From Clostridia bacterium (GTDB lineage: Bacteria > Bacillota > Clostridia > TANB77 > RGIG9151), in contig JAFSUW010000007.1 in NCBI GenBank assembly GCA_017450465.1, positions 6,247 to 70,246 of the forward strand: DNA of 64,000 nt. Reading direction: 5' to 3'. Of the stretch, positions 5,879-36,231 are shown piece after piece (positions within the stretch are counted from its first letter, which is position 1; the number at the start of each line of letters is the position of its first letter). A model generated the notes under the pieces. It saw nothing but the letters and a program-made list of their open reading frames with translations, was not told where the DNA came from and did no database searches. The position numbers and the translations under genes were made by a program.

Positions 5879-8800
5879 ATGTTTGAATTGAACAATTTTG
5901 ATAGCATCAAAATAAGTCTTGCTTCACCAGAGAAAATAAGAGAGTGGTCTAAGGGCGAAGTAAAAAAGCCTGAAACAATAAACTATAGAACATTAAAGCC
6001 AGAACGTGATGGACTTTTCTGTGAAAGAATATTTGGACCACAAAAAGACTGGGAATGTCATTGCGGTAAGTATAAAAGAGTAAGATATAAAGGTATTATT
6101 TGTGATCGATGTGGTGTTGAAGTTACAAAATCTAAAGTAAGACGTGAAAGAATGGGGCATATTGAACTTGCTGCTCCAGTATCACATATTTGGTACTTCA
6201 AAGGAATACCAAGTAGAATGGGCTTAATTTTAGATATTTCACCAAGAGCATTAGAAAAAGTTTTATATTTTGCTTCATATATTGTTATGGATGCTGGTAA
6301 TACAGGTCTTATGAAGAAACAATTACTTAGTGAAAAAGAATATAAAGAAGCAGTAGAACAGTACGGAAAAGATGCATTTAAAGTATCTATTGGTGCTGAA
6401 GCAATAAGAGATTTATTAAAAGAAATTAACCTAGAAGAATTATCTGCTGAACTTCATGAAGAAATGGCAAGTTCTTCAGGTCAAAAGAAAATAAAAGTTA
6501 TAAAAAGATTAGAAGTTGTAGACGCATTTAGGTTATCTGGCAACAGACCTGAGTGGATGATTATGGATGTTATTCCTGTAATTCCACCAGATTTAAGACC
6601 TATGGTACAGCTAGATGGTGGTAGATTTGCGACATCTGATTTAAACGATTTATACAGAAGAGTTATAAATAGAAATAACAGATTAAAACGTTTACTTGAT
6701 CTTGGAGCACCTGAAATCATTGTAAGAAATGAAAAGAGAATGTTACAAGAAGCAGTAGATGCGTTAATAGATAATGGTAGACGTGGAAGACCTGTAACAG
6801 GCCCTGGTAACAGACCATTAAAATCTTTATCAGACTTGTTAAAAGGAAAACAAGGTAGATTTAGACAAAACCTACTTGGTAAACGTGTTGACTACTCTGG
6901 ACGTTCAGTTATCGTAGTTGGTCCTGAACTTAAGATTTATCAATGCGGTGTTCCAAAGGAAATTGCAATAGAATTATTCAAACCATTTGTTATGAAACGC
7001 CTTGTTGAAAATGGTTTAGCACACAATATAAAGAGTGCAAAGAGAATGGTAGAACGTGTAAAACCAGAAGTATGGGATATATTAGAGGAAGTTATTAAAG
7101 AACATCCTGTAATGTTAAACCGTGCACCTACACTACATAGACTTGGTGTTCAAGCATTCGAGCCAGTATTAGTAGAAGGTAGAGCATTAAAACTTCACCC
7201 ACTTGTTTGTACAGCATTTAACGCCGACTTCGATGGTGACCAGATGGCTATCCACATTCCACTATCTGCAGAAGCACAAGCAGAAACAAGATACTTAATG
7301 TTATCTGCAAATAACTTGTTAAAACCACAAGATGGTAAACCAGTAACAGTTCCTACACAGGATATGGTTTTAGGTAGTTACTATTTAACAATCGTTCGTG
7401 AAGGAGCTAAAGGTGAAGGTACAATCTATAGTGATAAAGACCAAGCATTTATGGCTTATCAATGTGGAGATATTTCACTTCAAGCTGAAATATATGTAAG
7501 ATTTAAGAAAGAAATTGATGGAGTTGTTAAATCAAAAGTAATCAAAACAACAATGGGCAAAATAATATTTAACGAATCTATTCCTCAAGATTTAGGTTTT
7601 GTTGATAGATCAGACCCAGAAAAACAATTCGATTTAGAAATTGATTTCTTAGTAGATAAAAAAGCACTTGGAAAAATTATAGACAAATGTATTAGAAAAC
7701 ACGGCTTTACAGTATCTTCAAGCGTTGTTGATAAAATTAAAGCAACAGGTTTTAAGTATTCAACACGTGGTGCTATCACAGTTGGTGTAAGTGATATGCA
7801 GGTTCCGGATGTTAAGGAGAAGAAGATTAAAGAAGCCGAAGATAAAATTGAAGTTATCACAAAGCAATATAGACGTGGTTTAATATCAAATGAAGAAAGA
7901 TCAAAATCTGTAATTGCTATTTGGACAGAAACAATTGATGAAATTACAAAAGCATTGATGGATGGACTAGATAGGTTAAATCCAGTTTACATGATGGCTC
8001 ACTCAGGTGCCCGTGGTAACGTTAACCAGATTAGACAGTTAGCCGGTATCCGTGGACTTATGGCAGATACATCAGGTAAAACAGTTGAAATTCCTATTCG
8101 TTCAAACTTAAGAGAAGGTCTTGACGTGCTAGAGTACTTCATTTCATCCCACGGTTCTAGAAAAGGTTTAGCAGATACAGCACTTCGTACAGCAGACTCT
8201 GGTTACTTAACACGTCGTTTGGTTGATGTCAGCCAAGATGTAATTATAAGAGAAAAAGACTGTGGAACAAGTCGTGGTATTTGGGTTGAAGCAATTAAAG
8301 AAGGTAATGAAACAATCGAACCATTAGCAGAAAGAATTGCAGGAAGAACAGCATTAGTTGATGTTATAAATCCAGAGACCAAAGAAGTTATAGTTCCAGG
8401 TGATACAATAATCACAGTAGCAAAAGCTGATGAAATAGTGAAAGCAGGTATTACAAAAGTACAAATTCGTTCAACACTTACATGTCACTCAGAATATGGT
8501 GTATGTGCAAAATGTTATGGAACAAACTTAGCAACAGGTGCTGAGATGAATGTTGGTGAAGCAGTTGGTATAATTGCTGCACAATCAATCGGTGAACCTG
8601 GTACACAGCTTACAATGAGAACGTTCCATACTGGTGGTGTTGCCGGTGGCGATATTACACAAGGTCTTCCTCGTGTAGAGGAAATTTTTGAAGCAAGAAA
8701 ACCAAAGGGACTTGCTGTAATCACTGAAATAAACGGTAAAGTTACAATAAGTGACGTTAAGAAAAAACGTGAAGTTACTGTAACAGATGATGAAACAGGC

Positions 8801-34229: not shown

Positions 34230-34712
34230 ATGAGCAAAATAAGAGAAATATTAAATGACAAAGAAAGCGTATTAGTTTTTGATGTGGATGGTGTGCTTGC
34301 ATTATTTGAATGGGGTGAGCATAATCATTATGCAGATGATGATGAGAGCTGGGCAAAAATGTACGAAGCAGGTGGAACATATTATACTGAAAAATTTGTA
34401 ATTAAGAAAATGCAAGAGTTCTTAAAAGACAAAGATAAATCAAGAATTTATGTTATAACAAAGGCCTTTAACGATAATGAGGCAGACGATAAAAGAAATT
34501 TTGTAAATAAGTTTTATGGCATACCGAAGGATCATGTATACTATGTTACAGATAATAAAGATAAGGCAAAAGTTTTGTGTGAGATCAAAAAAGGGTATAA
34601 AGAGTTACCAGATTATAAACTTGTGATGATTGAAGATACAATTGATATTTTAACTAATATATATGAAAACACTGGCTTTTCAACTGCACATATAAGTAGT
34701 TTCCTAGATTGA
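34230..34712 (+). CDS. HAD-like 5'(3')-deoxyribonucleotidase-family protein (putative)
   Basis: VLVFDVDGVLA DxDG motif N-terminally, then IYVITKAFN. Confidence 0.4.
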   Translation: MSKIREILNDKESVLVFDVDGVLALFEWGEHNHYADDDESWAKMYEAGGTYYTEKFVIKKMQEFLKDKDKSRIYVITKAFNDNEADDKRNFVNKFYGIPKDHVYYVTDNKDKAKVLCEIKKGYKELPDYKLVMIEDTIDILTNIYENTGFSTAHISSFLD

Positions 34713-34755
34713 CAGTTTGGCTTAAAGATAGTATAATAAACATAAGGTGATAAGT

Positions 34756-34839
34756 ATGGCAAATCTATTAACAGTTAAATTTAATAACTGGTGGCGTGTA
34801 TGGGAAAAAAATAGCCCATACAGATTTGACGTGCTATAA
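34756..34839 (+). CDS. trpL: Trp leader peptide (27 aa, MANLLTVKFNNWWRVWEKNSPYRFDVL) of a trpB attenuator
   Basis: AAGGTGA RBS 5 nt upstream of the ATG. Three Trp codons lie at codons 12, 13 and 16, inside and next to attenuator segment 1. Confidence 0.55.
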   Translation: MANLLTVKFNNWWRVWEKNSPYRFDVL

Positions 34840-34889
34840 AATTAGGAATTTAGCACATGTATGGGTAAAAACCATATATGTGCTTTTTT
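34795..34889 (+). promoter_or_regulatory. Ribosome-mediated transcription attenuator: 1:2 pause hairpin, 2:3 antiterminator, 3:4 terminator + U-tract
   Basis: Segment 1 GTATGGG (34798-34804) pairs with segment 2 CCCATAC (34815-34821). Segment 2 CCCATACA also pairs with segment 3 TGTATGGG (34858-34865). Segments 3:4 form a 13-bp hairpin AGCACATGTATGG/CCATATATGTGCT (34852-34884) followed by TTTTTT. Confidence 0.6.
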
Positions 34890-34968
34890 ATTACCAAAAA
34901 GGAGGTGGTGCGTATGGAAACTGATTGGGTTTGGTTAAAATATATTACAAAGAAAGAAGGAGATTTTT

Positions 34969-36117
34969 ATGAATTATGGAGAATTTGGTGGACAATATGT
35001 ACCACAAGGATTAAAGGTTAAGTTAGATGAAATTGAAAATGAATTTAATAAAGCAATTTCAGATGAAAGTTTTGTAAGTGAGTTTAATTATTATTTGAAA
35101 CAATATGTTGGAAGGCCTACGCCGTTATATTTTGCAAAGAATTTAAGCGAATTTGCAGGTGGTGCAAAGATATACTTAAAACGTGAAGATTTAAATCATA
35201 CTGGGGCACACAAGATAAATAATGCGATAGGTCAGGCATTACTTGCAAGACGAATGGGAAAAACTCATATCATAGCGGAAACTGGTGCAGGCCAGCATGG
35301 TGTTGCAGTAGCGACCGTATGTGCGTTATTTAATATAAGATGCACAATATTTATGGGAGCAGAAGATGTAAAAAGACAAAAGGTAAATGTAGAAAAGATG
35401 AAATTACTTGGTGCATCAATAGAAGAGGTAACAGTAGGCAATGCTACATTAAAAGAAGCGGTAGATGTTGCATTTAATTATTTATTAGAACATGAGGACG
35501 TATTTTATTTAATTGGCTCTGCAGTAGGGCCTAGTCCTTATCCTGAAATGGTAAAATATTTTCAAAAAATAATAGGGATAGAGGCAAAAAAACAAATACT
35601 AGAGCAAGAAAATATACTTCCAAAAGCTATTGTAGCTTGTGTTGGCGGTGGTAGTAACAGCATTGGATTATTTACAGATTTTATAAACGAAGATGTTGAA
35701 ATTTATGGCGTTGAAGGAGCAGGTAAGGGACTAGATACAGGTAAACACGCTTCAGCCATATACAATAATCAAGTTGGAATATTGCATGGTATGAAAACTA
35801 ATGTAATGCAAGATGAAGAAGGTAATGTAAAAGATGCATATTCAATTTCGGCGGGGTTAGACTACCCAGGAATTGGGCCAGAACATGCGTATTTTAATAA
35901 AATAGGTCGAGTAAAATATGATAGTGTAACAGATGAAGAGGCAGTTAATGCATTTAGGTTACTTACAAAATTAGAGGGAATAATACCAGCATTAGAGAGT
36001 AGTCATGCGATAGCATATGCATTAAAAATTGCGAAAAATTATGATAAGGAAGATATTATTATAGTAAATTTATCTGGAAGAGGAGATAAAGACCTAAATA
36101 TAGTAAATAGTTTATAA
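34969..36117 (+). CDS. trpB: Tryptophan synthase beta chain (stand-alone TrpB)
   Basis: [31 protein letters not shown] (PLP Lys), GAGQHGVA and GGGSNSIG motifs; 382 aa. No trpA or other trp genes are adjacent. Confidence 0.9.
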
Positions 36118-36148: not shown

Positions 36149-36231
36149 TGGTGCTGTTGGTGGGACTTGAACCCACATGGTTTCCCGCAGCATTTTGAGT
36201 GCTGTGCGTATGCCAATTTCGCCACAACAGC
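36149..36231 (-). tRNA. tRNA-Leu (anticodon CAA) with a long variable arm
   Basis: Reverse complement GCTGTTGTGGCGAAATTGGCATACGCACAGCACTCAAAATGCTGCGGGAAACCATGTGGGTTCAAGTCCCACCAACAGCACCA; CTCAAAA anticodon loop. The ORF 36167-36367 across it is spurious. Confidence 0.9.

Follow-up and report, generated by a model that had tools for sequence, protein, structure and literature searches.

A predicted ribosome-mediated tryptophan attenuator before a lone trpB in uncultured Clostridia, followed by a second Trp-codon reading frame that may act on translation

The stretch of DNA analysed here, called the window, comprises 64,000 nucleotides (nt) of a Clostridia bacterium genome (assembly GCA_017450465.1, contig JAFSUW010000007.1, positions 6,247-70,246, forward strand). 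All coordinates are window positions, position 1 being its first letter. The window carries a stand-alone trpB, the gene for the beta chain of tryptophan synthase, and directly before it a candidate tryptophan (Trp) attenuator, namely a promoter, a short leader open reading frame (ORF) with clustered Trp codons, RNA segments that can pair in alternative ways, and an intrinsic terminator. A second ORF with Trp codons, here uORF2, begins after the terminator and runs into trpB. The features are as follows (SD, Shine-Dalgarno sequence; bp, base pairs; aa, amino acids).

34709-34737, + strand: sigma-70-type promoter, TTGACA (34709-34714), a 17-nt spacer and TATAAT (34732-34737), matching 12/12 consensus positions
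34744-34749, + strand: SD of the leader ORF, AAGGTG, 6 nt 5' of the ATG; AAGGAG in most relatives
34756-34839, + strand: leader ORF of 27 codons plus stop, MANLLTVKFNNWWRVWEKNSPYRFDVL, from the ATG at 34756 to the TAA at 34837-34839; read from the sequence, with homologues in relatives
34789-34803, + strand: putative regulatory Trp codons in TGG TGG CGT GTA TGG, codons 12, 13 and 16; conserved across lineages
34797-34804, + strand: segment 1, UGUAUGGG, the 5' arm of the 1:2 hairpin, including the third Trp codon; from folding, RNAalifold and pair counts
34815-34822, + strand: segment 2a, CCCAUACA, partner of segment 1 or of segment 3b; from pair counts
34831-34836, + strand: segment 2b, GUGCUA, the inner antiterminator strand, ending at the leader stop codon; from folding and pair counts
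34851-34865, + strand: segment 3, made up of 3a, UAGCAC (34851-34856, pairing with 2b), and 3b, UGUAUGGG (34858-34865, pairing with 2a); from folding and pair counts
34852-34890, + strand: intrinsic terminator with a 13-bp stem (34852-34884, -17.6 kcal/mol), a 7-nt loop and U6 at 34885-34890
34901-34907, + strand: SD of uORF2, GGAGGTG, very strong and nearly invariant in relatives
34914-35021, + strand: uORF2, 35 codons, in the +1 frame relative to trpB and spanning the trpB SD and ATG
34957-34962, + strand: SD of trpB, AAGGAG, within a conserved TTAAAGAAAGAAGGA tract that uORF2 reads as LKKEG; read from the sequence
34969-36117, + strand: trpB, stand-alone canonical tryptophan synthase beta, 382 aa; TIGR00263 at 589 bits (cut-off 392 bits) and Pfam PALP

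An initial annotation of this stretch had proposed a classical Trp attenuator here, and its coordinates for the leader ORF, the Trp codons, the segments and the terminator all match the sequence. Its text mentioned neither the second antiterminator helix described below nor uORF2, the latter lying within its coordinates.

Relatives were gathered from genomes and from European Nucleotide Archive (ENA) and Joint Genome Institute (JGI) metagenome contigs. A scan of a genome collection with TrpB gave 80 loci with TrpB identities of 53-81%, among which only L001 (81%) and L002 (76%) carry a homologous leader. The protein database contained many TrpB proteins at 81-84% identity, including that of 'Clostridium sp. 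CAG:452' and an identical protein in a 'Clostridia bacterium' metagenome-assembled genome. These were clustered, and the contigs of nine clusters were fetched besides the CAG:452-type cluster, which corresponds to L001; all nine have the leader ORF, the terminator and the second ORF before trpB, most with a consensus-like promoter. Furthermore, a leader-only DNA pattern scanned in metagenomes returned 20 stretches, of which 17 are family members, upstream of trpB or uORF2 where the contig reaches that far. The remaining matches (L098, L103 and L108) were rejected as chance occurrences in unrelated GC-rich or eukaryote-like DNA.

After removal of near-duplicates, and of L111 because of homopolymer indel errors, the final set consisted of 23 lineages, the window and 22 others. 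The unit of leader ORF, terminator and, where the region is readable, uORF2 precedes trpB in all 22 further lineages, whose TrpB is 76-84% identical to that of the window, and the genes flanking the attenuator-trpB unit differ between lineages. Codons of the leader ORF were tabulated for 21 lineages, and the uORF2 region was readable in 19. Pair counts for the stems rest on a 22-sequence alignment (A2), with 500 shuffles and with partners slid by 1-3 columns as controls. A covariance model built from the 23 lineages had a single match in the window (105 bits), with no second copy of the attenuator there, and among 100 loci it found family members only, with none of the 78 other, more distant trpB loci matching.

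The promoter is the top-scoring site between 33000 and 37500 in a consensus scan and overlaps the stop codon of the upstream gene. Inspection by eye placed a TTGACA and a -10 box at the equivalent position in most relatives for which upstream sequence was available. At 34737-34744 the window is 7 nt shorter than L001. An SD precedes the leader ORF in 23/23 lineages, and homologous leader ORFs of 19-30 codons occur in the 22 other lineages, which bears out the initial annotation's 27-codon ORF with a ribosome-binding site and three Trp codons within five codons.

The Trp codons (34789-91, 34792-94 and 34801-03) are close to invariant, with the first and second TGG each present in 20/21 lineages and the third in 21/21; the exceptions are L002, which reads LW.VW, and L092, which reads WF.VW. 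The first of them stands 10-11 codons from the leader ATG in all lineages (11 codons in 22/23), and the N-terminal codons, in contrast, vary at all three positions. Such clusters, defined as at least three TGG within five codons, occur 9 times in the six frames of the 64-kb window, and 2 of these fall in this 280-nt region. Every lineage has a cluster of Trp codons directly before this gene for Trp synthesis. Counted from the first base of the third Trp codon, segment 2 begins 14-18 nt further on in the 23 lineages (14 nt in the window), so that it would lie just beyond a ribosome stalled at that codon, while segment 1 would be covered. The leader stop codon is found 16 nt past segment 2 in 21/23 lineages, a placement that the initial annotation had likened to E. 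coli trpL.

The reading frame is largely maintained between the Trp codons and the stop. Indels in the loop of the 1:2 hairpin (P1) are multiples of three in all lineages except L002 and L101, where the frame shifts after segment 1; in both, the Trp codons and every RNA segment are preserved and the stop codon lies elsewhere. These shifts indicate that what is conserved is the Trp codons plus the RNA rather than a peptide, and given them, the conserved C-terminal 'HPYxFVxL' of the leader peptides would reflect constraints on the RNA. The leader peptides matched no Pfam family at E-values up to 10 and no NCBIfam model. A functional small protein encoded by the leader ORF was rejected as a candidate, since L002 and L101 change frame after segment 1.

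Folding of the 157-nt leader gave -51 kcal/mol (z-score -6.9), with 0/200 shuffles equally stable, and the minimum-energy fold consists of exactly the 1:2 hairpin and the terminator. The core of the 1:2 hairpin is GTATGGG (34798-34804) against its complement CCCATAC (34815-34821). Across the alignment, P1 pairs in 95.5% of cells, against 25-57% in the slid controls, with 2 pairs changed on both sides. The terminator is present in 23/23 lineages (-12 to -25 kcal/mol), with 98.6% of cells paired and 4 pairs changed on both sides, values reached by 0/500 shuffles. Over P1, antiterminator and terminator together, slid partners paired in 14-75% of cells. RNAalifold run without guidance recovered P1 and the terminator, plus covariation at the top of the terminator stem.

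The competing structure, the antiterminator, would use positions 34852-34864, which double as the 5' arm of the terminator. Here the outer 2:3 helix put forward in the initial annotation, with TGTATGGG read in the DNA at 34858-34865 as segment 3b, held, and its single simple helix did not. The antiterminator is bipartite in the window, with a second, inner helix between GUGCUA (34831-36) and UAGCAC (34851-56), and the fold of 34814-34864 has -11.7 kcal/mol. For these calculations the RNA ran from segment 2 to the end of the terminator 5' arm, mimicking a ribosome stalled at the third Trp codon. Across lineages the outer helix takes the form CCAUACA with UGUAUGG, and the inner helix that of GUGCU(U/A)(UAA) with (UUA)(A/U)AGCAC, ending at or containing the leader stop codon; in most relatives segment 2b is GCUUUAA, stop codon included. 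The inner helix is 83% paired with 3/6 pairs changed on both sides, and the whole antiterminator is 86.4% paired with 5 such pairs in the 22 sequences. Its apical extension is lineage-specific in sequence and length and could not be aligned, yet is self-complementary in every lineage, and the antiterminator folds of the 23 lineages range from -6 to -20 kcal/mol, with z-scores of -1.0 to -4.9 (23/23 negative). Since the inner helix occupies 34831-36 and 34851-56, a ribosome at the leader stop codon would sit on it, as in the E. coli model.

Individual lineages show how the segments change together. In L091, segments 1, 2 and 3 changed in step (G-C to A-U, C-G to U-A), L092 changed segments 2 and 3 together, and in L002 CACA/UGUG became CGCG jointly in segments 2b, 3a and 4. 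Folding and the conserved pairings thus support the three mutually exclusive hairpins (1:2, 2:3 and 3:4) of the initial annotation, and the leaders of relatives retained both the Trp codons and the alternative pairings.

These data bear on a reading in which nothing is switched. The terminator would end the upstream operon or dampen trpB constitutively, and the G/U-rich stems would give rise to the Trp-rich ORFs incidentally. The upstream gene indeed has no terminator of its own in a consensus scan, the third Trp codon belongs to the stem sequence GUAUGGG, and WRIWW, a later Trp cluster in uORF2, is merely an out-of-frame reading of the conserved EFGG codons of trpB. However, the conserved TGG TGG pair is not part of the stem, the three exclusive pairings are kept and change together, and the TGG cluster is rare (9 in 128 kb, counting both strands), yet stands before trpB in every lineage. 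Moreover, trpB is accompanied by promoter, leader and terminator in many different gene neighbourhoods. We therefore consider a constitutive unit extremely improbable.

An RNA that acts without translation, that is, a riboswitch or protein-binding leader sensing Trp, indole or a related metabolite with the ORF incidental, has a concrete point of departure in the Rfam 'trpB motif' (RF04312). The window was scanned with Rfam at gathering thresholds, and 34600-35100 also at E-values up to 10. RF04312 was the best sub-threshold match, aligning full length to 34797-34893 with 27.1 bits (E = 0.11; gathering score 59). The family, also SRC-39-1, comprises more than 900 members in Firmicutes and Fusobacteria and is ranked a 'strong riboswitch candidate' (Narunsky et al. 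2024; PMC11109978); it shares the topology seen here, the 3' shoulder of its P1 acting as antiterminator. It mostly precedes an amino-acid-type ABC transporter and sometimes trpB, and its authors left open a classic attenuator (PMC11109978). Conservation at the nucleotide level of P1 and of part of the C-terminal leader codons would also suit a riboswitch. Nevertheless, the score is far below 59, and RF04312 gave 23.7 bits on an unrelated hairpin-terminator leader before an ABC transporter in L116, a control against which scores near 25 bits seem to reflect shared architecture only. There was no gathering-level match in L001, L002, L084 or L092, and L002 had no match at E-values up to 10. Membership in RF04312 was rejected on this basis, the window and these four relatives being below threshold and the L116 control leader scoring about the same as the window. 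The P1 loop is short (10-14 nt), variable and A-rich, with no conserved pocket-like core. A riboswitch would further not account for the SD, the constant 11-codon distance of the ATG, the pair of TGG outside P1, the frame-keeping indels and the fixed position of the stop codon, and we regard it as very unlikely.

In the reading we favour, a ribosome-mediated leader-peptide attenuator responds to charged tRNA-Trp and governs a monocistronic trpB; judging from the sequence comparisons, we put the probability of this reading at roughly 0.8. The features that define leader-peptide attenuators occur together here, namely an SD-led ORF, a cluster of Trp codons, a terminator and mutually exclusive 1:2 and 2:3 pairings, and the classical attenuator of the initial annotation is in this sense supported on every sequence-level count across the 23 lineages. 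In the proposed mechanism, transcription would start at about 34744 and a ribosome would begin translating the 27-codon leader ORF. Under a shortage of Trp-tRNA, it would stall with codon 12, 13 or 16 (34789-34803) in its A site, covering segment 1 (34797-34804) and leaving segment 2 free. Segments 2a and 2b would then pair with the emerging 3b and 3a, taking up the 5' arm of the terminator and allowing read-through into trpB. When Trp-tRNA is plentiful, the ribosome would reach the stop codon at 34837-39 and sit on 2b and the 3' end of 2a; alternatively, the 1:2 hairpin would re-form behind the ribosome at the leader stop. In either case no antiterminator would form, the 13-bp terminator would, and transcription would end at the U tract (34885-90).

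Several points weigh against this reading. The -10 box and the leader SD are separated by 6 nt in the window and by at least 12 nt in relatives, and because the SD begins 6 nt after the -10 box, it would lie at the extreme 5' end of the transcript. The shuffle control for the antiterminator is marginal, with 16-62 of 500 shuffles reaching the observed values, and its outer helix has a C-A mismatch in 4 lineages. The 23 lineages are close relatives, with TrpB identity of at least 76%, which limits covariation, and as the majority of stem positions are invariant, the covariation comes from a handful of events, chiefly those in L002, L091 and L092. At -11.7 kcal/mol the antiterminator is less stable than the terminator (-17.6 kcal/mol), so the switch would need kinetic coupling of ribosome and polymerase, and in B. 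subtilis transcription is described as outrunning translation (Johnson 2020, in the summary contained in PMC7858274).

Downstream of the terminator, uORF2 was found in 19/19 lineages with a readable region. Its SD-start region, GGAGGTGGTGC(A/G)TATG, is almost invariant among relatives, and its Trp codons at 34926-28 and 34932-34 (codons 5 and 7) form part of a conserved motif, M-E/D-x-D-W-x-W, with TGG at codon 5 in 19/19 lineages and at codon 7 in 16/19. Substitutions follow a codon-periodic pattern, with codons 2, 4 and 6 differing nearly exclusively in their third base (GAA/GAT/GAG/GAC, GAC/GAT and CAT/CAC, respectively). Between the uORF2 start and the trpB ATG the spacing is 55, 58, 61, 64, 76, 79, 82 or 91 nt, all 1 mod 3, in 17/19 lineages, and the frame remains open in sequence of about 30% GC. 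Its stop lies 53 nt inside trpB in the window and 46-68 nt inside across lineages. Gene callers annotated uORF2 in three contigs. Separately, insertions of about 65-150 nt occur between the terminator and uORF2 in L088 (2262-2440), L084 (2410-2500) and, 3' of the terminator, in L106 and L112; an additional inverted repeat, TATAGGAAAGT.C......ACTTCC.TATA, is part of those in L088, L106 and L112.

No significant RNA structure was predicted between the terminator and trpB (z-score +0.56), in keeping with ribosomes doing the occluding instead of a hairpin that switches; a translational switch built on a hairpin sequestering the SD is accordingly unsupported as a candidate. Nascent-peptide arrest of the TnaC kind on uORF2 was also judged unlikely, since the spacing from W-x-W to the LKKEG/SD tract varies over 55-91 nt.

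Instead, uORF2 may sense Trp at the level of translation, in the manner of B. subtilis rtpLP. Transcripts that escape termination would carry uORF2, whose SD is much stronger than that of trpB. With ample Trp, ribosome traffic through uORF2 over the trpB SD and ATG would hinder initiation at trpB; with scarce Trp, a stall at uORF2 codons 5-7 would block further loading and free the trpB SD some 25-60 nt downstream. This logic would be that of the rtpLP leader before anti-TRAP; rtpLP is a leader peptide with three Trp codons at which stalling occurs. Together, the two parts would make a two-tier, all-ribosome Trp sensor, in which the leader peptide gates transcription and uORF2 gates translation of the escaping transcripts. 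This translational tier is less certain than the attenuator, and we offer the two-tier arrangement tentatively, at somewhat less than even odds. Speaking against it, L099 and L114 have a single Trp codon left in uORF2, and in the L084 clade a 1-nt difference puts uORF2 in frame with trpB, giving a 402-aa product. Moreover, whereas rtpLP stops at the SD, uORF2 continues out of frame for about 60 nt into trpB. Any occlusion would, given a stop 46-68 nt inside trpB, have to come from elongating and not from terminating ribosomes.

The same observations invite the opposite reading, of uORF2 as a positive element, either a strong-SD stabiliser at the 5' end of the trpB mRNA or an alternative start for an extended TrpB. 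Stalled ribosomes on the erm leader and the STAB-SD of cryIIIA protect mRNA from 5'-to-3' decay. The SD GGAGGTG is much stronger than needed, and there is no RNA structure that needs opening. In the L084 clade, the in-frame fusion of uORF2 and trpB accounts for seven protein clusters of 401-402 aa (L084 2501-3709, also L085; P0005, P0006, P0010, P0012-14 and P0021), whose TrpB models start with MDVDWWFNNKNSIKKEGIN-MNYLEFGG. On the other hand, uORF2 is out of frame in 17/19 lineages, so an extended TrpB is not a general product, and a mere stabiliser would have no need of conserved Trp codons or of a frame kept open across the trpB start. We consider a positive element unlikely, though deserving some weight; stabilisation by a ribosome stalled for Trp on uORF2 would be compatible with the gate model, and both could act jointly. 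JGI TrpB models of 417 aa (P0030-32) are also over-extended, and for one of them the retrieved locus failed to translate to the query protein.

The trpB gene itself stands alone, as the initial annotation had stated. No homologue of trpA, trpC, trpD or trpF was found in the window with TrpA, TrpC, TrpD and TrpF queries from three trp operons, and the neighbours of trpB vary in relatives. The TrpB2 model scores below its own cut-off on the window TrpB. The protein (382 aa) contains 0 Trp residues, so its synthesis would be possible during Trp starvation, and the lone trpB probably makes Trp from indole and serine. Upstream lie a GNAT acetyltransferase and two ORFs without an assigned family; downstream are a tRNA-Leu(CAA) gene on the reverse strand (36149-36231, - strand), which converges on the 3' end of trpB 32 nt past its stop codon, and a Tim44-like ORF. 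The consensus scan found no terminator between trpB and this tRNA gene.

Most of the other genome trpB loci lie within trp operons. Some carry T-box leaders instead, namely L004 (2616-2917), L043 (2628-2879) and L061 (2694-2940), with 102-124 bits and TrpB 58-63% identical to that of the window; at least several hundred non-coding bases lie in front of these trpB genes. Different Clostridia are, by these predictions, using different RNA mechanisms at the same position before trpB. As for gene surroundings, in L092 (3794-6158) the genes after trpB encode three functions of aromatic amino-acid biosynthesis, DAHP synthase, prephenate dehydratase and an aminotransferase, and no trpA was called within 2.5 kb on either side. 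In L116, from a CAG:452-type genome, an operon for an amino-acid ABC transporter lies 2.6 kb 5' of trpB. The leader of this operon (7100-7352) combines a promoter-like site of its own with a short ORF (METKIIFRNEHHKN), a hairpin and a terminator ending in U7, and may represent either a further small attenuator or something distantly related to the trpB motif.

If the attenuator reading holds, E. coli-style Trp attenuation would be a further solution in uncultured low-GC gut and rumen Clostridia, beside their T-box relatives, and a family of 23 lineages would add another mode to the textbook T-box and TRAP control of Firmicute trp genes. The element would provide a compact natural test of transcription-translation coupling, or of pausing at the 1:2 hairpin, in a phylum for which 'runaway' transcription has been reported. 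Induction of a Trp-free lone trpB by Trp starvation would fit indole salvage by gut bacteria and would thus be relevant to how indole and tryptophan are managed in the gut. For annotation, the family is missing from Rfam, and uORF2 is sometimes called as a gene or fused to trpB (the 402-aa and 417-aa models). Furthermore, the orphan RF04312 may at least partly consist of leader-peptide attenuators rather than ligand-binding RNAs, and the result gives a direct route to the alternative that its authors left open.

E. coli trpL is among the closest known systems. Both have an SD-preceded short leader ORF with clustered Trp codons overlapping segment 1, alternative 1:2, 2:3 and 3:4 pairings with an intrinsic terminator before the first structural gene, and a stop codon placed so that a terminating ribosome would disable segment 2. 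They differ in that three Trp codons are arranged as WWxxW here against two adjacent ones in trpL, that there is no similarity in sequence or to the covariance model, and that the antiterminator here is bipartite with a lineage-specific apex. Moreover, a lone trpB would be controlled instead of trpEDCBA, the host is a low-GC Firmicute, and a second Trp-codon ORF is present. Correspondingly, the Rfam model Trp_leader (RF00513) had no match in the window at its gathering threshold or in 34600-35100 at E-values up to 10, and the Pfam model Leader_Trp (PF08255) had none to the leader peptides at E-values up to 10.

The mechanisms expected for Firmicute trp genes fit less well. The only gathering-level Rfam matches in the window are two tRNAs; no T-box (RF00230) was found in the window at its gathering threshold or in 34600-35100 at E-values up to 10, and the Rfam check suggested in the initial annotation thus brought up neither T-box nor Trp_leader. 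The same scan did recover the T-boxes before trpB in L004, L043 and L061. T-box(Trp) leaders of other Clostridia have the same position and the same job, Trp-responsive read-through of a terminator before trpB; they lack a leader ORF, unlike the attenuator proposed here, and recognise uncharged tRNA through direct pairing of the leader RNA with the tRNA. With only 3 irregularly spaced (G/U)AG triplets in 34744-34900, compared with about 9-11 at spacings of 2-3 nt in a TRAP site, the leader is not a TRAP site. RF04312 shares with our element a P1 hairpin whose 3' shoulder is able to pair with the 5' arm of the terminator, in a Firmicute 5' untranslated region, but the model's conserved A.AGA / UCU.U / GGC is absent here, and the P1 loop has 10-14 nt compared with about 28 nt.

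For the combination of both ORFs, the B. subtilis at (rtpA/yczA) operon offers the nearest parallel, in which uncharged tRNA-Trp is sensed twice, at transcription by a T-box and again at translation (Chen and Yanofsky 2003, 2004, as cited in PMC10327191). Both systems belong to Firmicutes, place a Trp-codon ORF at the SD of the regulated gene and would combine transcriptional with translational sensing in tandem, the translational role here being the predicted one. The first tier here would be a leader peptide and not a T-box, and the regulated gene encodes an enzyme and not an anti-regulator. As far as found, such a 'double leader peptide' arrangement is undescribed, the at operon using a T-box as its first tier, and a full-text search, which was not exhaustive, returned no published description of a Trp leader peptide in Clostridia.

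The initial annotation had called leader-peptide attenuation unusual for Firmicute trp genes. This stands insofar as T-box and TRAP control dominate; unprecedented it is not, given the architecture of RF04312 (PMC11109978), the His leader-peptide attenuators predicted in the B. cereus group, Peptostreptococcaceae and Erysipelotrichales (PMC9413887), and B. subtilis vmlR, a known leader-ORF attenuator (PMC9226507). The His and vmlR attenuators show ribosome-dependent transcription attenuation, the mechanism predicted here, to exist in Firmicutes, and like the family before trpB they are lineage-restricted and fall outside the proteobacterial Rfam models; they differ in responding to His or to antibiotic-stalled ribosomes, and their sequences are unrelated. 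Taken at the level of sequence, the element before the lone trpB forms a new family, one that would use a well-known mechanism, Trp attenuation mediated by the ribosome.

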